A stretch of DNA of 64,000 bases from Escherichia coli (lineage in GTDB: Bacteria > Pseudomonadota > Gammaproteobacteria > Enterobacterales > Enterobacteriaceae). Below the pieces are notes generated by a model. The model was not told the origin of the DNA. It did not search any database and saw only the letters and a program-made list of their open reading frames with translations. The DNA is taken from assembly GCF_001677475.2 (NCBI RefSeq), contig NZ_CP015229.1, one strand, 5' to 3'. Numbering within the stretch: position 1 is the stretch's first letter; the number at the start of each line of letters is the position of its first letter. The position numbers were made by a program, and so were the translations under genes. Below, piece by piece: positions 1 through 7,483 of the stretch.

Positions 1-100
1 TGTTACTCTGTTGCCGTTCTTATCCCGATAAATAGCGCCGGGGATAATTTTGGGATGTGCATAACCGCTGGCAGTCAAGCCAGATAAATACGTTCTCATG
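1..100 (-). CDS. Hypothetical protein, 5' end only (gene continues past window start); last visible gene of a coupled minus-strand operon
   Basis: ATG at 100..98 on minus strand, 5 nt after the stop of the 106..426 ORF, preceded by a GGGGA RBS-like stretch; frame open to position 1 (MRTYLSGLTASGYAHPKIIPGAIYRDKNGNRVT...). Confidence 0.35.
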
Positions 101-105
101 ATTAT

Positions 106-426
106 TTATCCCCGATTTGAATCAGTATTCGCTTTCTTTATGGCATTTAATGCATCTGTGGCATTTTCAATGGTGCACCGTAACGAAATATCAAAATGTC
201 CAAGCATTGCCAGTAACAAACCGATATTACCCATATCAATGCGCATGGCCTTTTCGTCATAGTCCTCATTTTCTGACGCATGCCACATCAGGCTACCAAT
301 TGACGCAACGGCCATTGATATATTGTCAGTCGCCCCATCCGCAGCGGAATAAACCTTTTTAGCAATATCATGCTCACAGTTAAAATGCGGATTAATCAGG
401 TACTGGTAATTTGACATATCAGGCAT
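106..426 (-). CDS. Hypothetical protein (106 aa), island cargo, unknown family
   Basis: ORF in track; its start overlaps the stop of the upstream 67-aa gene in the sequence ATGCCTGA (translational coupling). Confidence 0.5.
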   Translation of the reverse strand: MPDMSNYQYLINPHFNCEHDIAKKVYSAADGATDNISMAVASIGSLMWHASENEDYDEKAMRIDMGNIGLLLAMLGHFDISLRCTIENATDALNAIKKANTDSNRG

Positions 427-622
427 GGCACACCCCCTGACGAATACGGGCGGCGAATACCATCACGCAGCCAGCCGGGGAGTGCTGGCGTGCTTCCTGT
501 TCGCTGGTGGCCACGATGGTAATCACACGCGGTTTTGCGGCGCTCAGGGCGATAAAACGCCAGGCGAATTTATTCAGGTTGTGCGAATCCCGCCCTTGCG
601 GGTGTATGGTATGATTTCTCAT
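419..622 (-). CDS. Hypothetical small protein (67 aa), first gene of the minus-strand operon
   Basis: ATG at 622..620 preceded by GAGG at 5-nt spacing; stop overlaps start of the 106..426 ORF. The 334-aa track ORF 419..1423 is judged an artefactual upstream extension. Confidence 0.45.
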   Translation of the reverse strand: MRNHTIHPQGRDSHNLNKFAWRFIALSAAKPRVITIVATSEQEARQHSPAGCVMVFAARIRQGVCHA

Positions 623-660
623 AGCTACCTCGATACTCTCGTTATCGTTGGTGGTTAGAA

Positions 661-706
661 GCCCTGCGAGTGGTAACGACACTTGCGGGGCTTTGTTTTT
701 TGTTGC
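661..706 (+). terminator. Strand-specific intrinsic terminator-like hairpin (12-bp stem with two G-U wobbles, then T-run)
   Basis: GCCCTGCGAGTG...CACTTGCGGGGC followed by TTTGTTTTTT on the plus strand; wobble pairs become C-A mismatches on the minus strand. Confidence 0.35.
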
Positions 707-713
707 ACTTACT

Positions 714-766
714 GTTAATGTACGTACGTAATATTGATGATAATAGGAGTTACGTACGTACATGTC
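714..766. promoter_or_regulatory. Two copies of the self-complementary decamer TACGTACGTA about 32 bp apart; candidate operators for the adjacent RHH repressor
   Basis: TGTACGTACGTAAT at ~718-731 and GTTACGTACGTACATG at ~750-765; the second overlaps the ATG of the 762..953 gene. Confidence 0.4.
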
Positions 767-953
767 AACATTAAAGCGGGATAAATCACCACGCGGCGAG
801 GGATGGTCGCCGACATTCCAGATACGAATTAGCAAAGAACTACGCCAGCAAGTAAACGAGGCAGCAACCGCCGATGGCCTAACCCTCGGCAATTGGTTTA
901 AAGAATTAGCTCGTGCCGAACTAAAGCGACGCGGCATTGAACCTAAAGGCTGA
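762..953 (+). CDS. Ribbon-helix-helix (Arc/MetJ/CopG-like) DNA-binding protein, 63 aa
   Basis: N-terminal beta-strand pattern TFQIRISKELRQQVNEAA typical of RHH repressors; operator palindromes overlap the start codon. Confidence 0.5.
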   Translation: MSTLKRDKSPRGEGWSPTFQIRISKELRQQVNEAATADGLTLGNWFKELARAELKRRGIEPKG

Positions 954-956
954 TGT

Positions 957-1082
957 ATGACTGAAAAGCAGACCGATAACAAACTTTCTCTACCAGAGAA
1001 TAAACCAGCAGGCTTCTTACCAAGAAAAATCCTTGATGAGATCAAACGCCGCCAGCGGCGCAAGGCCAAAGAGCAGGAGTAA
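957..1082 (+). CDS. Small hypothetical protein (41 aa), basic C-terminus
   Basis: ATG 3 nt after the RHH gene stop (TGATGTATGA), same strand; not in track because shorter than 60 aa. Confidence 0.25.
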   Translation: MTEKQTDNKLSLPENKPAGFLPRKILDEIKRRQRRKAKEQE

Positions 1083-1139
1083 CCATCACCAGCGCCGTGG
1101 TGCGGTGAACTGTGGCGCACAGGGTTACAGGTATCTACG

Positions 1140-1319
1140 ATGACTGACAAATCATTAAAGAAATTATCCTCATCCAAGAAAAAACAACGCAAAAATGCGG
1201 TAAACGAACATGAACCGGAGAGATTCGCACCATGTGCGTTTATCCTTGAGAAGTACCTTAAAGAGTATTCTAGGAAAATACGCTCATTGCAGGCATGGCA
1301 GCGAATCGAGCCAGACTGA
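1140..1319 (+). CDS. Small hypothetical protein (59 aa), lysine-rich
   Basis: Manual translation MTDKSLKKLSSSKKKQRKNAVNEHEPERFAPCAFILEKYLKEYSRKIRSLQAWQRIEPD; same strand as the RHH gene. Confidence 0.2.
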   Translation: MTDKSLKKLSSSKKKQRKNAVNEHEPERFAPCAFILEKYLKEYSRKIRSLQAWQRIEPD

Positions 1320-1429
1320 TAGCATTGCCCACCAGCCAACAACCTGGTATTCTGGATATGCTCAAGTTTAGTGTTATGCCACTGGCGGCCCTCTGCGGTC
1401 GCCTTTGTTTTATGTGCCATCACTCCCCC

Positions 1430-1648
1430 TTACACCGTCTGCGTTCTGCGAGTGGATGCAAGATAAGCATCGAGATCAGTGCGCATATACAGCACTTTGC
1501 GCCCCAGCTTATGGAAAGGGATTTTTACCTTGCCAGTACAGGCCCAGTTCGCCAGCGTTTGATTGTTAACGCCAAGGTAGGCAGCAGCTTCAGCACGTGT
1601 AAGGCGGTCAGTTGATAAATCAGATTTCTTTAAATTCATATCTATCAC
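1430..1648 (-). CDS. alpA: AlpA-family prophage regulatory protein (excisionase-like HTH), 72 aa
   Basis: Size and sequence LTRAEAAAYLGVNNQTLANWACTGKVKIPFHKLGRKVLYMRTDLDAYL match the AlpA/Vis family; sits downstream of int as in CP4-57. Confidence 0.7.
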   Translation of the reverse strand: MIDMNLKKSDLSTDRLTRAEAAAYLGVNNQTLANWACTGKVKIPFHKLGRKVLYMRTDLDAYLASTRRTQTV

Positions 1649-1781
1649 CGTGTACTTCTAAGTAACAACGGTGATAAATATCAATCAATGGGTATTTTGT
1701 TTTTAGCCCAATAGCCAGTTGCTGTGGGGAGGTTACCAGTTATTTAGCCTTAATAGCCAGCTATTAAGATACACTAGCCAG

Positions 1782-2507
1782 CTATTGGGGGTGAACAAGT
1801 TCAAACGAAGAATATTTATCAGGTCTTGGTGGTTGTGCTCCTGATTCTTTAATCCATTTATCCAGAGTGTTTTTACTTACTTTCCCATGATAGTAAACAG
1901 AAAGCTCGTTCAATAAACCTGTTTTACTGGCTTTAGGGTACTTTTCCCATGTTAGTTTAATTACGTGCATAACTTCATTGTAATAATGATTTCTTGGTTT
2001 GCGCGCTTTTTCTTTCTGTGATAAGGATAAAGCATCTTTTATTTTTTTATCTTTTTCATGGTTCGATATAATTTCTTCAAAAAAGTCATTAAGCAATAAC
2101 TCAACACCAACCCTAGTAAGTTTGTCTGCGTGATTACGCATTCCGACATGGTACAATGCAACTGCTGAATTTAAAGTATCGACAACCTGACAAGATAGTT
2201 TACTATCAAATATTAAAAAACCACATGAATCCATTCTTATAGCTAATTCAATAGGATATTGCTCGATTTCTCTTAATTCTAAACCATAACACAAAAGAAA
2301 TTCTCTTGTTGGATACTTTGATTTATAAAAATAATCTCTTATATCATCAATCAAGCGTTTTATAGCCTCTATGGTGGAGTTTTTCGGGGATAAAGATACA
2401 GGAACGTTTAAAACTGAAGAGTCTCGCCCACCAGTAATTAAATCATTCATAACCGAATAAATAATATATTGTTTGACCGATATATTGTTATCACCCATAT
2501 ATGTCAT
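1782..2507 (-). CDS. Hypothetical protein (241 aa), strongly AT-rich cargo gene between int and alpA
   Basis: ORF in track; start overlaps the integrase stop (2491..2507); composition visibly more AT-rich than flanking genes. Confidence 0.55.
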   Translation of the reverse strand: MTYMGDNNISVKQYIIYSVMNDLITGGRDSSVLNVPVSLSPKNSTIEAIKRLIDDIRDYFYKSKYPTREFLLCYGLELREIEQYPIELAIRMDSCGFLIFDSKLSCQVVDTLNSAVALYHVGMRNHADKLTRVGVELLLNDFFEEIISNHEKDKKIKDALSLSQKEKARKPRNHYYNEVMHVIKLTWEKYPKASKTGLLNELSVYYHGKVSKNTLDKWIKESGAQPPRPDKYSSFELVHPQ

Positions 2508-3912
2508 TCTTTTCTTGTACTATAGCAAATAGTAAACGACGTTTTTCATCATCACTCATGCCCTCCAGTGCGGAAAGTAATTGCGCATCGATAGATTTTT
2601 TACTCTCCACCAGCCCGGCATGTTCCAGAATTGCCCGTTCTATCCGTGATGCTGGCTCCAGCAGTTCATCAGCACCGAAATGTAAATACCCCTGCGTTAC
2701 GTCGGCACTTCGCATAGTGCGGTGATTCATCAGGCGCTTGAGGATGTAATTACCCACGCCCACCAGCTCAGCAACCGTTCCGAACGTCCGGCGTGCGTCG
2801 TGCCACTTAAACGGGACAGGGAAGAGCATTTCATCGTTCGCCTCAGGAATGGTAGCCGCGCTTATCCGGTCTATGATGTGCCGTGTCTCCTGAATCACTC
2901 CCTTCACGCCAGGAAACACCAGCACATCATCAGCAGCTTTGTTTTTTAGCCTGCGAAGAAACATTTTCCGCAACGTATCAGTGATCGGCAGTTCAAGCGG
3001 ATCCCCGTTTTTCGTGGTGTCTATCCAGAAAAAGCGACCGCCCATATTCACGCGATCCCACGTAAGGCCAAAAACTTCTGATTTCCTCAGTCCGGTAAAC
3101 AGTGCCATTTCCACGGCATCACATACCGTAACAGCTATATCATCCCTTTCCTGTTCGCCCTGGTCGCGCACAGCAGCTACAGCAGCAAACCAGCGGGGAA
3201 AATCATGCAGGCGGATACGTTCCGTTTTTCTTACCGTTCCGTGCCACTGGCGCTTGGTGCTCAGTACCAGAGTCGGCGGATCCGGTAAAAGAGTATTACC
3301 CGCATCATCACGGTAATGATCATGCGCAAACCGACACACAGCACGTAGCGCACGCGCCCATAAATCGGCCTGTGCCTTGCTTCCTGTACCAACCCCAGCC
3401 CGTAACGTGGTTTTATCAGCACCGAACCATACAGCCCCATCAGTGATGGCCTTATGCCGTTGTTCCACCCGTTCGCGGGAAATACTGGCGAGGGTATGGG
3501 CCATCCAGTCACCGGAATAATTCTGTAATATGCTGCGGTACTGTTTTTCTGTGGAGGGTTTCAGGCGGTGGCCACGATTTTTTACGTAGGCGTCAATCGC
3601 CTCACTCAGCGTTATCATGGCCTTGTTGTTAGTGCGCTTTGCTATGTTCGGATTTATCCCCGTTGTGGCGACTTCGCCAAGGAGTTCCATAGCTTTAGCC
3701 CTGGCATTATCCACGCTCAGATCAGGAAAACGCCCCAGCGTTGCACGAATAAATTTTCCGTTACGCTTACGGGAAATGCAGAAACTTTTCACACCAGACG
3801 AACCTACACGGACACGCAGCCCGTTAACCTCCGTATCACCATATTCGACCTGTCCATGTTCCGGCGTTGGCAGTTCTGCAATTTTTACTTTAGAGAATCT
3901 GAATAATTTCAC
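2491..3912 (-). CDS. int: Tyrosine recombinase / phage integrase (P4-family), 473 aa
   Basis: N-terminal arm-binding pattern (EVNGLRVRV...GK...ATLGRFPDLSVDNARAKAMELL) and C-terminal catalytic motifs (HDARRT...GYLH); adjacent to tRNA-derived att site. Confidence 0.85.
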   Translation of the reverse strand: MKLFRFSKVKIAELPTPEHGQVEYGDTEVNGLRVRVGSSGVKSFCISRKRNGKFIRATLGRFPDLSVDNARAKAMELLGEVATTGINPNIAKRTNNKAMITLSEAIDAYVKNRGHRLKPSTEKQYRSILQNYSGDWMAHTLASISRERVEQRHKAITDGAVWFGADKTTLRAGVGTGSKAQADLWARALRAVCRFAHDHYRDDAGNTLLPDPPTLVLSTKRQWHGTVRKTERIRLHDFPRWFAAVAAVRDQGEQERDDIAVTVCDAVEMALFTGLRKSEVFGLTWDRVNMGGRFFWIDTTKNGDPLELPITDTLRKMFLRRLKNKAADDVLVFPGVKGVIQETRHIIDRISAATIPEANDEMLFPVPFKWHDARRTFGTVAELVGVGNYILKRLMNHRTMRSADVTQGYLHFGADELLEPASRIERAILEHAGLVESKKSIDAQLLSALEGMSDDEKRRLLFAIVQEKNDIYG

Positions 3913-4092
3913 TCATACACCCCACCAAGCGATCTGGTATCCTGGAAAATCGCTTGTTCTGCTCCAGGATACCTATAGGATACCGTAAAGAAGTATTTTG
4001 GGGTATATACAGGTATTTATACAGTAGTTTTAAAAAATGCTAAGGTATTGAAAAGTATCGCTAAGTATCTGTAAGTAAAGGGTTATCAACCA
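3913..4092. promoter_or_regulatory. Integrase upstream region with reiterated short motifs (GGTATCC/GGATACC inverted and direct copies; AAGTATC direct copies); candidate int promoter and arm-type sites
   Basis: Visible repeats CTGGTATCCTGG...CCAGGATACC...GGATACC and TAAGTATCGCTAAGTATCTGTAAG. Confidence 0.3.
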
Positions 4093-4139
4093 ACTCATAA
4101 TCGCTTGGTCGCTGGTTCAAGTCCAGCAGGGGCCACCAG
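4093..4139 (+). tRNA. ileX: Truncated tRNA: 3' 47 nt of a tRNA-Ile2(CAU)/ileX-like gene (anticodon loop through CCA); island att site, not a complete tRNA
   Basis: ACTCATAATCGCTTGGTCGCTGGTTCAAGTCCAGCAGGGGCCACCA matches the 3' portion of E. coli ileX as I recall it; no complementary 5' acceptor strand upstream. Confidence 0.6.
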
Positions 4140-4146
4140 ATATAGC

Positions 4147-4182
4147 AAAGGCTGACGAGAAATCGTCAGCCTTTTTCTTTTT
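4147..4182. terminator. Intrinsic terminator hairpin between tRNA fragment and yqjH 3' end
   Basis: GGCTGACGA-GAAA-TCGTCAGCC followed by TTTTTCTTTTT. Confidence 0.5.
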
Positions 4183-4191
4183 ATATATCAG

Positions 4192-4956
4192 TTACTTTGC
4201 GTGCCAGTAAGCCGCTGCACGTACCCGCTGTGGATCATACTGTTCCGCTTCAAAGCGGCGGCTTAAATTCTTAACGACTTTGCCTTCGCCGGTTATCCAG
4301 ATGAAGTAATCATCGGCAGGGATTTGCATCTGCGCCAGACGCGCATCTACTGCCTGCTCATCATGTGCCAGCCATTCGATATTAAAACCATCAAGGTGCG
4401 CGAGATAATCCTGACAGGCGTTATCCCGCACGCTAACCAGCGCACTAACTTGCGGTTTAACGGCAAGTTTGCTCAACGTTTCCAGGCGGCGGCGCAGTGC
4501 GGGCATTCCGGATTCATCGCAGACATACAGCTGATACGCGTAATCTTCCGGCACCACCAGCGAACCGCGGGGACCTGCCACCGTGAGTTTATCGCCCGGT
4601 TGCGCCTGCATTGCCCAGCTGCTGGCGACGCCACCTTCGTGAATAAAGAAATCAATCGCCAGTACATGGCGTAGTTCGTCATACAGCGGTGTATAGTCAC
4701 GCGACGGTGGGCGTGGTCCTTCCGGCCAGACGATGCCCTCTTCCGTTACTGTTGGCGGCACAAAGTGAGCATCAGATTGAGGAAAGAAGAGTTTGCTGTG
4801 ATCGTCAAAGCCGCGCGATGTAAAACCGTCCAGCGCCTCGCCGCCAAAGACAATGCGCTGAAAACCGGCGCTAATACGCTCAACGCGTAGCACAGTCAGT
4901 TCACGGAAGCGCAGATCATTGCGAACGCGCTGCGGGTAGCGGGGGGAGTTATTCAT
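4192..4956 (-). CDS. yqjH: NADPH-dependent ferric-siderophore reductase (siderophore-interacting protein)
   Basis: ORF in track; sequence and position match K-12 YqjH. Confidence 0.9.
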   Translation of the reverse strand: MNNSPRYPQRVRNDLRFRELTVLRVERISAGFQRIVFGGEALDGFTSRGFDDHSKLFFPQSDAHFVPPTVTEEGIVWPEGPRPPSRDYTPLYDELRHVLAIDFFIHEGGVASSWAMQAQPGDKLTVAGPRGSLVVPEDYAYQLYVCDESGMPALRRRLETLSKLAVKPQVSALVSVRDNACQDYLAHLDGFNIEWLAHDEQAVDARLAQMQIPADDYFIWITGEGKVVKNLSRRFEAEQYDPQRVRAAAYWHAK

Positions 4957-4977
4957 TGTTATCGCCTTCGTGATAGT

Positions 4978-5214
4978 AATAAGATATATCTAAATAAATT
5001 TCGTAAATGATAATGATTGTTAATCATGATAAATGCAAGCGATTTGTAGAACTGATACATCTGAGGTATGAGAAGACATTCAACGTCGTAGAAAGGCTGG
5101 CGGATGCGGCGTGAACGTATTATCCGGCCTGGATGTGAGGTGCATTCACGTTTAAAAATCATTTTTATACTTGCAAGAGCGCTCATGTCAGATATAAATT
5201 AGATATATCTAATT
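4978..5214. promoter_or_regulatory. yqjH-yqjI divergent control region with two AGATATATCT palindromes (one within a perfect 18-bp palindrome AATTAGATATATCTAATT)
   Basis: AGATATATCT at 4982..4991 (yqjH side) and 5201..5210 (yqjI side, palindrome spanning 5197..5214). Confidence 0.5.
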
Positions 5215-5232
5215 AAGCAAAAGGAGGCTGAT

Positions 5233-5856
5233 ATGAGCCATCATCACGAAGGGTGTTGTAAACATGAAGGCCAGCCACGCCATGAAGGCTGCTGCAAAGG
5301 TGAGAAGTCAGAACATGAGCACTGCGGACACGGTCACCAGCATGAACACGGTCAATGCTGCGGTGGTCGCCACGGTCGCGGCGGCGGTCGTCGGCAGCGT
5401 TTCTTTGGTCACGGTGAATTGCGTCTGGTGATTCTGGATATTCTCTCGCGCGATGACAGCCACGGTTACGAGTTGATTAAAGCGATTGAAAATCTGACCC
5501 AGGGGAATTACACCCCAAGCCCGGGCGTCATCTACCCGACGCTGGATTTTCTCCAGGAGCAGTCGCTGATTACCATCCGCGAAGAGGAAGGTGGTAAGAA
5601 GCAGATTGCGCTGACCGAACAAGGCGCGCAGTGGCTGGAAGAAAACCGCGAACAGGTGGAGATGATCGAAGAACGCATCAAAGCGCGTTGCGTTGGTGCA
5701 GCGCTGCGCCAGAACCCGCAAATGAAGCGGGCGCTGGATAATTTTAAAGCGGTGCTGGATTTACGCGTCAACCAGAGCGATATCACTGATGCACAAATAA
5801 AAAAGATCATTGCGGTGATCGACCGCGCCGCTTTTGATATTACGCAACTGGATTAA
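5233..5856 (+). CDS. yqjI: PadR-family metal-responsive repressor with His/Cys-rich N-terminus
   Basis: ORF in track; N-terminal MSHHHEGCCKHEG...HEHGQCC tract plus PadR-like core. Confidence 0.9.
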   Translation: MSHHHEGCCKHEGQPRHEGCCKGEKSEHEHCGHGHQHEHGQCCGGRHGRGGGRRQRFFGHGELRLVILDILSRDDSHGYELIKAIENLTQGNYTPSPGVIYPTLDFLQEQSLITIREEEGGKKQIALTEQGAQWLEENREQVEMIEERIKARCVGAALRQNPQMKRALDNFKAVLDLRVNQSDITDAQIKKIIAVIDRAAFDITQLD

Positions 5857-5861
5857 TCACC

Positions 5862-5962
5862 GATTGCCGGATGCGGCGTACCCTACACACCCCGTAGGCC
5901 TGATAAGATGCGCCAGCATCGCATCAGGCATTGTGCTCCAACCGCCGGATGCGGCATACCGA
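5862..5962. repeat. REP/BIME palindromic units
   Basis: GCCGGATGCGGCGTA...GCATCAGGC and CCGGATGCGGCATACC motifs. Confidence 0.5.
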
Positions 5963-7483
5963 TTAATGCAGCACCGTCACCGCGTCTTCCAGTCGGCTGG
6001 CGCGGTGTTTCACCATCGCCGACACCTGCGCACTCTCTTCCACCAGCTCGGCATTTTTCTGGGTGATCAGGTTAAGCTCATCCACTGCACGGGTCAGGCT
6101 GGAAAGCCCATCGGCCTGTTCCAGCGTTGAGTGGCTAATCTGGGCGATCAACTGGGTGACGTTTTTCACCTGTGCCACAATATCTTCCATCGTCCGTCCG
6201 GCGGCGTGTACCTGCTGCGAACCGGATTGCACCTTATCAGCACTGGCATCAATCAGCTTGCGAATATCGTTGGCAGCATTGGCGCTGCGGCTGGCTAAAT
6301 GACGCACTTCCCCTGCCACCACTGCAAAACCTTTGCCTTGTTCGCCGGCTCGTGCCGCTTCCACCGCCGCATTCAGGGCCAGAATATTGGTCTGAAACGC
6401 AATATCGTTAATCAGCGAAGTAATGGTGCCAATGCGCTGGGTACTGTCGGCGATATCGTCCATTGTCTTGATCACCGTGCTCATCGCCTCCCCGCCCTGC
6501 ACTGCCGCATTACTGGCAGTGATAGAAAGTTTATCGGCAGCCGACGCCGTGGCAGAGTTCTGTTTCACCGACGCCGCCATTTGGTTCATGGTCGCCACCG
6601 TTTGCTGAACGTTATCAACTGTCTGCTGGGTATGTTCGTTCAGTTCATCGGTGCCTTTCGCCAGCGTCTCACTGCCGTTTCTGACACTGGACACCTGGCT
6701 TGAGACATCGTTAATTAGCCAACGGCACATCAGGCCAAGCTGCCCTACCGCGCGTAATGTCAGCCCCAGCTCATCGCTGCGATTCAGATGCTCAACACTA
6801 TTACGCTCTCCGGTCGCCACCTTCAGTGACTGACGGGCGACATTTTCTATCGGGCGGACAATCTGCCATTCAAAACAGGCGCTTGCCAACAATACCACTA
6901 ACGCACAGAGGATATACGTCACCACCGGGGCAGCAACAAACCAAAGCATGACCGCCAGCAAGATAAACATCAGGGTCATCACGCCACGCGCCCGCCAGCG
7001 AAGCGGTAATGAAGGCAGTTTACCCAGCCAGCCTTTACGCACCACCAGGCCTTTATGAATACGCTTACTGGTACGTCCGGCGTTCAACGCTTTGTACAGC
7101 GGCTCCACCGCCGCGATCTCTTCATCCGTCGCCCGGGTACGAATCGACATATAGCCACTGATTTTTCCCTCACGCACCATCGGTACCGCATTGGCCCGCA
7201 CCCAATAATGGTCGCCATTTTTGCGGCGATTTTTCACGATGCCGCTCCAGGGCTCCCCTTTTTTCAGGGTGAACCACATATCCGCAAACGCCGCTTTTGG
7301 CATATCCGGGTGACGCACCATGTTGTGCGGCTGCCCTTGTAACTCTTGCAAGGTATAGCCGCTCACCTGTACAAAAGTGTCATTAGCATGAGTGAGATAG
7401 CTTTTCAGATCGGTAGTGGACATCAGAGTGGTATCGTCCGCCAGCGGGGTATTTTGCTGGGTGACATACGAATGAGAAGACAT
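5963..7483 (-). CDS. aer: Aerotaxis receptor Aer (PAS-FAD sensor, HAMP, methyl-accepting signalling domain)
   Basis: ORF in track; PAS N-terminus and MCP signalling domain recognisable. Confidence 0.9.
   Translation of the reverse strand: MSSHSYVTQQNTPLADDTTLMSTTDLKSYLTHANDTFVQVSGYTLQELQGQPHNMVRHPDMPKAAFADMWFTLKKGEPWSGIVKNRRKNGDHYWVRANAVPMVREGKISGYMSIRTRATDEEIAAVEPLYKALNAGRTSKRIHKGLVVRKGWLGKLPSLPLRWRARGVMTLMFILLAVMLWFVAAPVVTYILCALVVLLASACFEWQIVRPIENVARQSLKVATGERNSVEHLNRSDELGLTLRAVGQLGLMCRWLINDVSSQVSSVRNGSETLAKGTDELNEHTQQTVDNVQQTVATMNQMAASVKQNSATASAADKLSITASNAAVQGGEAMSTVIKTMDDIADSTQRIGTITSLINDIAFQTNILALNAAVEAARAGEQGKGFAVVAGEVRHLASRSANAANDIRKLIDASADKVQSGSQQVHAAGRTMEDIVAQVKNVTQLIAQISHSTLEQADGLSSLTRAVDELNLITQKNAELVEESAQVSAMVKHRASRLEDAVTVLH

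Follow-up and report, generated by a model that had tools for sequence, protein, structure and literature searches.

How does an integrated phage satellite keep the operon for its own replication and capsid silent in the host chromosome? The question is raised by the start of the window, the stretch of 64,000 nucleotides from Escherichia coli (contig NZ_CP015229.1) that was analyzed here as a whole, where a short control region lies between a minus-strand and a plus-strand operon. The first 3.9 kb of the window are the right end of an integrated element, which shares 99.9% identity with its counterpart in E. coli A36. In the full A36 copy, the minus-strand operon starting from 622 encodes, according to the RefSeq annotation, an Icd-like protein, a 106-amino acid (aa) hypothetical protein, a DUF4222 protein, a DUF927 primase-type protein, a single-stranded DNA-binding protein (SSB), the major capsid protein, a decoration protein and the small terminase (terS). 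Given an operon that joins Icd-like, primase, SSB, capsid and terS genes, the element is, on gene content, a capsid-forming satellite of the phage-inducible chromosomal island (PICI) type, integrated in E. coli. Capsid-forming PICIs and related satellites are common in Enterobacterales, and we found no description in the literature of how their main operon is kept silent. We propose that the operon headed by icd is governed by a two-layer switch, comprising an Arc-like ribbon-helix-helix (RHH) repressor and a short cis-antisense RNA, and we would put the probability of this reading at about 0.6. Likewise, region 607-768 is in our judgment probably the lysis/lysogeny-type control region of a PICI-like satellite.

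The feature that first draws attention in this region is a hairpin at 658-694 on the plus strand, with 15 pairs (8 of them G-C) and a 7-nt loop, which is followed directly on its 3' side by the T-run GTTTTTTGTT (695-704). As plus-strand RNA this hairpin folds at -26.8 kcal/mol (z score -6.2); the minus-strand RNA forms a weaker version (-16.3 kcal/mol, z -3.3) that has no T-run after it. An initial annotation of the locus had described a hairpin with two G-U wobbles that forms only in plus-strand RNA and sits just upstream of the start of the minus-strand operon. The T-run and the strand asymmetry agree with that description, but the word "only" does not, considering the fold of the minus-strand RNA. 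Both wobbles, U665-G687 and G670-U683, are present, together with a third, G658-U694, at the base of the stem. As for its position, the hairpin is indeed 36 nt upstream of the 67-aa Icd-like gene, but it lies inside the predicted transcribed leader of the icd operon and not upstream of the icd promoter.

To see how this structure varies, we drew on 80 relatives from IMG/VR found via the Icd protein (L002-L081) and six from genomes of other genera; the comparison was made on about 45 relatives, with 41 distinct copies for the promoter hexamer described below, 23 distinct hairpin variants and 35 sequences for consensus folds. A genome scan had returned 54 exact 16-mer stretches, six of which were true relatives (two from Photorhabdus, two from Xenorhabdus and one each from Edwardsiella and Providencia); the other 48 were discarded as chance-like by species and context, with approximately 140 chance matches estimated. 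The hairpin is found at the same place in all relatives, with a variable sequence. When the 23 distinct variants were folded both ways, the plus orientation was more stable in every one of them, with 56 G-U pairs vs. 7 in the other orientation. In an alignment guided by a covariance model built from 35 sequences, 97.9% of the cells of a 21-pair structure were paired and 10 of the 21 pairs showed double-sided changes, values that were reached in none of 500 shuffles; within helices 3 and 4, changes on both sides were seen in 9 of 11 pairs, and G-U cells exceeded A-C cells by 125 to 4, in an alignment that was fitted in the plus orientation and hence favors G-U pairs. Two orientation-neutral controls were available, namely the folding of the 23 variants given above and RNAalifold on the mirrored alignment; for one and the same set of 35 sequences, RNAalifold gave a consensus of -22.26 kcal/mol (21 pairs) when plus-oriented vs. 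-4.98 kcal/mol (10 pairs) when icd-sense-oriented. Past the stem, the plus orientation of the relatives has 3-6 T among the first 8 nt (mean 4.5), with the window's copy among the best, while CTAACCACC, a sequence that is not T-rich, comes after the hairpin in every case when it is read in the icd-sense orientation, and a T-run never does. The plus strand therefore carries what marks an intrinsic terminator: a G+C-rich stem with a short loop, a U-rich tract, and selection on the transcribed strand. That the hairpin structure is selected on the plus strand is a conclusion we draw from sequence comparison, because of the covariation and the strong asymmetry of G-U over A-C.

Together with the hairpin, the region predicts a cis-antisense small RNA of ~80 nt (623-702, plus strand; -38.7 kcal/mol, z -6.35), which would start beside the first codon of icd. 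Over its whole length it is complementary, without a mismatch, to the 3' end of the icd leader (80 nt), a stretch in which the Shine-Dalgarno (SD) sequence GAGG lies at 631-628. Ahead of the terminator this RNA has a 5' stem-loop (623-656), made up of an outer helix (623-629/650-656), an inner helix (631-635/643-647) and a 7-nt loop (636-642). RNAalifold and per-pair counts indicate that, read as plus-strand RNA, the outer helix relies on G-U pairs; one A-U pair of the stem-loop is changed to U-A in 5 sequences. The two-domain fold of the 80-nt RNA is common to the window, the relative L008 and P. thracensis, and a search of the window with the covariance model gave one hit only, to plus-strand positions 608-719 (103 bits). 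Moreover, the 40 nt that separate the hairpin from the ATG of icd (CTAACCACCAACGATA-N7-TATCGAGGTAGCTATG) are invariant in E. coli, Photorhabdus, Xenorhabdus, Providencia and Edwardsiella, with the coding sequence past the ATG diverged.

A putative promoter for this RNA, P_as, is represented by the predicted extended -10 element TGGTATGAT at 607-615 on the plus strand, within icd codons 3-5. All 41 distinct copies have a -10-like TATnnT at a constant 7 nt ahead of helix 1, as TATGAT in 27, TATGCT in 5, TATAAT and TATATT in 4 each, and TATTAT in 1. The changes are thus confined to the two least critical positions of a -10 element, the invariant positions being those that matter most, and some of them are non-synonymous for Icd. 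The spacing between hexamer and RNA is kept where the ATG has moved by 6 nt (L073, L075, L080 and a second copy in L070), and the hexamer itself is kept in Photorhabdus, Xenorhabdus and Providencia despite a different or unrelated N-terminus of the protein. In the main group, a TG before the hexamer makes it an extended -10. Conservation of the first codons in close relatives was dropped as evidence for a promoter, since the whole gene is equally conserved there; because of this uniform conservation, the argument for the promoter is taken only from the distant relatives and from the copies with a shifted start. Considering the plus-strand-specific, covarying two-domain structure and the fixed -10-like element upstream of it, we surmise that an unannotated antisense RNA gene of ~80 nt is the best explanation, though still a prediction. 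Production of the RNA, its ends and its effect on icd are likewise predicted. The initial annotation had considered a short plus-strand antisense transcript of 100-250 nt; covariation, G-U asymmetry and the hexamer all point to such a transcript, albeit one predicted to be only ~80 nt long.

This RNA does not seem to belong to a known family. Rfam 15, including C4 and IsrK, gave no family matches in window positions 1-6000, in 560-780 at E <= 10, or in the whole satellite in the A36 copy (L001) at E <= 0.1; the best scores in 560-780 were 14-17 bits (E >= 0.45), which are chance-level, and came from microRNA and countertranscribed RNA (ctRNA) models. With three Rfam scans devoid of a family match, a C4/IsrK system of the P4/P1 type was ruled out. 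We also found no description of this RNA in the literature on Icd-like/antisense, on capsid-forming PICI repressors, on PICI or P4-like RNAs, or on ECs1576/ECs1577.

The other layer of the proposed switch is found to the right of the hairpin. The self-complementary 10-mer TACGTACGTA occurs without a mismatch twice and no more in the 64 kb (721-730 and 751-760), vs. a chance expectation of 0.01, and two or more copies occurred in 0 of 100 shuffles. A 14-nt inverted repeat is built around each of them as its core, and the two 14-nt arms, ATGTACGTACGTAA (left operator, 719-732) and TTACGTACGTACAT (right operator, 750-763), are mutually reverse complementary. The pair of palindromes and the neighboring RHH gene had both been recognized in the initial annotation and are confirmed, but the spacing of ~32 bp given there is 30 bp when measured start to start; in addition, the right 10-mer ends at 760, one base short of the RHH ATG (762-764), so that the overlap with the start codon holds only for the 14-nt arm, which takes in the first two bases of the ATG. 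Among relatives, P. thracensis and X. szentirmaii encode an orthologue of the repressor whose strand is likewise PTFQIRI, and they retain both copies of the operator (with one base different in the left core of X. szentirmaii), while the 19-nt spacer has diverged. Paralogues with a PPFHMRI strand have the palindrome TGTACACCTAT in the same two positions (L045, L051 and L065), those with a PPYQMRL strand have TGGTAATTACCA there (L020 and L081), the protein of L025 and L068 goes with GGTACGTACC, and O157:H7 has GGTGACCACC. Because operator copies and beta-strand are conserved while the spacer diverged, and because both change together in the paralogues, the assignment of these operators to the RHH repressor is well supported, with binding itself predicted. 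Most relatives have a different small divergent repressor with its own repeats (the copy in O157:H7 F8092B is annotated as YlcI/YnfO family); the repressor/operator cassette is thus exchanged between elements that otherwise differ very little. In L002-L081, at least eight operator types occur ~100-400 nt upstream of icd, and the hairpin types are shuffled relative to them.

The position of the operators relative to two predicted promoters suggests what they control. The icd-operon promoter (740-768, minus strand) has a -35 of TTGACA (768-763), a 17-nt spacer and a -10 of TATTAT (745-740), with a predicted start at ~733; with 11 of 12 consensus matches, it is the one outstanding promoter in a consensus scan, and it scores 15.7 on our own crude position-weight matrix (PWM), on which only 36 sites in 128 kb score at least 10. 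Read in reverse complement, its -35 belongs to the first codons of the RHH gene, ATGTCAA, and a TTGAC(A/G) -35 is conserved in relatives. From the position of this promoter, the icd mRNA would have a 5' leader of ~110 nt (623-733, minus strand), which folds weakly (-26.9 kcal/mol, z -2.9). The right operator takes up the spacer between -35 and -10, and the left operator extends from about +1 to +14. With operators in the spacer and at +1 of a near-consensus promoter, the icd operon is therefore the predicted main target of the repressor. A promoter for the RHH gene can only be inferred (693-721, plus strand; PWM 9.3): it has a -35-like TTGTTT (693-698), for which the T-run after the hairpin doubles, 17 nt, and an extended -10 of TGtTAATGT (713-721), with a start at ~728, such that the left operator covers its -10/+1 region. 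The motif TGnTAA(T/A)GT directly ahead of the left operator is conserved in L045, P. thracensis and X. szentirmaii. An RHH mRNA that starts inside the left operator would therefore give autorepression, which is only a prediction, secondary to control of icd and dependent on the weaker of the two promoters. Autorepression and a divergent switch had been the initial reading of these palindromes; the joint conservation and change of operators and beta-strand favor it in part, but with the main predicted target moved to the icd operon.

The repressor gene itself (762-953, plus strand) encodes 63 aa. It has 22 close homologues, in Escherichia, Salmonella, Edwardsiella, Citrobacter, Klebsiella and Morganella, with an invariant SPTFQIRI segment that corresponds to the strand; several of them are named HicB-family antitoxin via PF05534. 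Compared with the PDB, the family profile had its best match in P22 Arc (E 0.084), covering 48 of the 53 residues of Arc. The AlphaFold2 model (mean predicted local distance difference test score 75) has an extended segment (17-23) that leads into two helices (25-37 and 42-56), and all top Foldseek matches are RHH proteins, with Arc (1myl) first at a probability of 1.00 and a target-normalized template-modeling score of 0.86. Matches of the 63-aa protein to Pfam HicB and NCBIfam YlcI_YnfO_N were below the cut-offs. Judging from homologues and the modeled structure, this open reading frame (ORF) is a genuine, conserved gene, and its product has an RHH fold like that of Arc.

Several observations weigh against the antisense RNA layer, in addition to the plus-oriented fit of the covariance-model alignment. 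The PWM score of P_as is 6.8, a chance level of ~1 per 150 nt; no -35 is recognizable for it in the main group, and the TG of the extended -10 is absent in some relatives. The hexamer also lies in coding sequence, with the whole of icd being 92-95% identical among close relatives. Many relatives have a broken T-tract, with 3-4 T among the 8 nt after the stem, and termination may be inefficient in these. Finally, as mild negative evidence, the Hfq-CRAC (crosslinking and analysis of cDNA) survey of O157:H7 Sakai, a method that detects only Hfq-bound RNAs, lists no orphan small RNA in Sp7, the Sakai prophage with a copy of the module. EcOnc13 and EcOnc32 (901 kb in the Sakai table) sit in the late region of the lambdoid prophage Sp3.

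Some of these points would suit a simpler account, in which the hairpin is only a terminator, acting as a one-way insulator against stray rightward transcription into the repressor and icd promoters, with no dedicated small RNA gene. Selection on the plus strand, the T-rich tract that follows and the position directly ahead of the predicted RHH promoter are all accommodated by it, and the initial annotation had offered a terminator insulating the RHH promoter as a second option, with which the dual role of the T-run as -35-like element is compatible. Besides, the 607-615 promoter is weak, and a better-scoring plus-strand site (PWM 10.1) is found at 358-386. This promoter-like site (TTTAGC/TTAGCA, 16-17 nt, TAAAAT), inside the gene for the 106-aa protein, would give an RNA of ~310 nt antisense to all of icd that ends at the same terminator; but for many E. 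coli relatives the homology begins only at about the stop codon of icd, leaving the site outside the shared module. We consider the insulator account unlikely, as it leaves unexplained the conserved 5' stem-loop with its plus-strand-only G-U pairs, the TATnnT at a fixed 7 nt in all 41 copies, and the invariance of a 40-nt noncoding stretch across genera. The last of these, with the SD included in the invariant 40 nt, might instead speak for an element of the sense strand, with the hairpins acting in the icd 5' untranslated region as a stabilizer, a translational operator or an antitermination/attenuation device, and the plus-strand features being by-products. The region is indeed transcribed as the leader of a strong predicted promoter, and the sense RNA does form the weaker hairpin (-16.3 kcal/mol, z -3.3). 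However, the consensus fold is far poorer in the sense than in the plus orientation (-4.98 vs. -22.26 kcal/mol), the mismatches of the sense fold are A-C at varying positions, as would be expected if G-U pairs were tolerated on the other strand, no T-run is found past the hairpin in the sense orientation, and no Rfam leader or cis-regulatory family matches, making a sense-strand role quite improbable in our view. A site at the level of DNA, whereby the inverted repeat at 658-694 would be a protein-binding or cruciform site such as a replication origin or packaging signal, is suggested by its proximity to replication genes; we give it hardly any credence, given that the repeat is hypervariable with compensatory changes, where a protein site would keep its bases, and that G-T oppositions on one strand only make it an imperfect DNA palindrome.

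In the two-layer switch that we favor, the Arc-like repressor, made from its own weak promoter, would bind the two copies of the 14-bp palindromic operator. With operators between -35 and -10 and at +1, this would turn the icd-primase-capsid operon off and dampen the repressor's own promoter. In the second layer, the weak, -35-less promoter TGGTATGAT in the first icd codons would drive the rightward ~80-nt RNA, which, as a 5' stem-loop plus intrinsic terminator fully complementary to the last 80 nt of the icd leader and its SD, would pair with that leader, probably beginning with a loop-loop contact. Pairing would block translation of icd and/or trigger cleavage, thus setting a threshold against leaky transcription. 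The terminator would also halt the antisense transcript ~30 nt short of the two main promoters.

The closest analogue in logic is immI of phage P22, with Mnt, Arc and the sar RNA against the ant ribosome-binding site, where small RHH repressors, overlapping promoters and palindromic operators are combined with a cis-antisense RNA against the ribosome-binding region of a downstream gene (PMC2629481). The likeness extends to the protein, P22 Arc being the best profile and fold match of the satellite repressor. Unlike in P22 immI, the regulated operon of the satellite is headed by an Icd-like gene, with primase and capsid genes after it, and no antirepressor is annotated there; there is one RHH gene here and two in P22, the RNA sequence is different, and the element is a satellite, not a phage. 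The sar RNA, in work of Liao et al. from 1987, is said to be about 69 nt long, with its promoter in the arc-ant interval. No Rfam model matched the satellite RNA, with the presence of a sar model in the library not checked.

Antisense-RNA immunity is also found in P4-like satellites (PMC3632133). As in the P1/P7 immI (c4 RNA-icd-ant) and in P4 immunity (IsrK-like seqA and C4-like CI RNA), an RNA regulator would precede an icd-type gene heading an operon here. In contrast to P1 and P4, where the C4 and CI RNAs are cut from the sense leader and act on the same transcript, the structure under selection in the satellite belongs to the opposite strand, which provides a promoter-like element and a terminator for it. 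The hypervariable loops of the RNA nonetheless recall the heteroimmunity determinants of P1/P7. CopA, RNAI and Sok are short, structured cis-antisense RNAs convergent to the leader that they target and fully complementary to it, with a 5' stem-loop and a terminator, and in them, as here, loops vary between related elements. The satellite RNA has no sequence or model homology to them (ctRNA families at E 0.45-2 only), and its target would be the early operon of a satellite under a protein repressor rather than a replication initiator or a membrane toxin. The master repressors of the Stl type in staphylococcal pathogenicity islands are encoded divergently from the replication/packaging operon with operators in between, an arrangement that the satellite repressor shares, but with an unrelated fold (a 63-aa RHH protein here) and with an RNA layer added.

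How conservation is distributed over the module bears on the RNA loops. In 35 close relatives, icd is 92-95% identical, third codon positions included, and the linker and small stems are 98-100% identical; by comparison, identity is 64% in the loop at 636-642, 72-74% in the terminator arms, 47% in the terminator loop (673-679), and 40% in the promoter/operator region. The two RNA loops are accordingly small hypervariable patches in an ultraconserved block. For a 7-nt hypervariable patch between invariant stems, recombination is hard to invoke, and the pattern points to free drift or else, as with the copy-control RNAs of plasmids, to selection for new specificities. One may go further and speculate that the RNA represents a widespread, unannotated family of satellite "RNA immunity", with loops and terminator stem as specificity determinants under diversifying selection and co-resident satellites falling into RNA incompatibility/immunity groups, akin to plasmid copy-control RNAs and the c4 RNAs of P1/P7; we regard this extension as a doubtful one. 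If the two-layer switch is true, capsid-forming PICIs would combine a swappable Arc-like repressor/operator cassette with a conserved antisense RNA against the first gene of the operon, thereby providing a handle on the induction of satellites by helper phages, an RNA gene to add to annotation, and a case in which to test whether hypervariable loops determine specificity among satellites that share a cell.

The gene order around the control region is in keeping with the element as described. The Icd-like gene (419-622, minus strand; 67 aa; NCBIfam phage_ICD_like, E 9.3e-18), preceded by its SD at 631-628, is the first gene of the replication and capsid operon. Rightward, the 63-aa repressor gene is followed by two small ORFs, an excisionase-like helix-turn-helix gene, a 241-aa ORF, the integrase gene and the host gene nfeF. 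According to the ORF list, the repressor gene heads a three-gene operon (762-1319, plus strand), which would be closed by a terminator-like hairpin and T-run at 1384-1403 on the plus strand (GGCGGCC...GGTCGCC, then TTTGTTTTAT); this hairpin separates the end of the operon from the convergent excisionase-like gene at 1430-1648. No tRNA gene that could serve as attachment site is present in the window, the integrase gene adjoining nfeF. Between these two, at 4147-4174, is a perfect 12-bp palindromic hairpin with a T-run, which may be a terminator at the junction of element and host. Further on in host DNA, a repetitive extragenic palindromic (REP)-type repeat at 5897-5973 scores 44 bits with Rfam naRNA4, below the gathering score of 59.5.

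The module is present in 1404 of 5426 complete E. coli genomes (about a quarter), at 1764 places, with up to six per genome, and no DNA similarity to phages was found in 50,697 phage records. A copy in E. coli O157:H7 Sakai lies in the "untypable prophage" Sp7 (NC_002695.2, 1597410-1597522, minus strand; L140 7410-7522), whose gene content (capsid, protease, portal, terminase, primase and pchE) is that of the capsid-forming satellite type; RefSeq places a 744-nt hypothetical coding sequence (ECs_1576) over the control region of Sp7, and no satellite is found at cspD in Sakai. The RNA predicted for this Sp7 copy would extend from about 1597507 to about 1597428. L070, a single IMG/VR contig, has two copies of the RNA module ~740 nt apart (1162-1271 and 1906-2015), the second of which precedes a different small ORF (MAIKEHS...), and in L072 ~540 nt separate the module (1356-1465) from the Icd match downstream of it. 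Outside the window, just past the terminase end of the satellite in E. coli A36, there is a second gene for a tyrosine recombinase (L001 3376-4692 and 14092-15513), which suggests that two integrative elements lie in tandem at the nfeF site of that strain.

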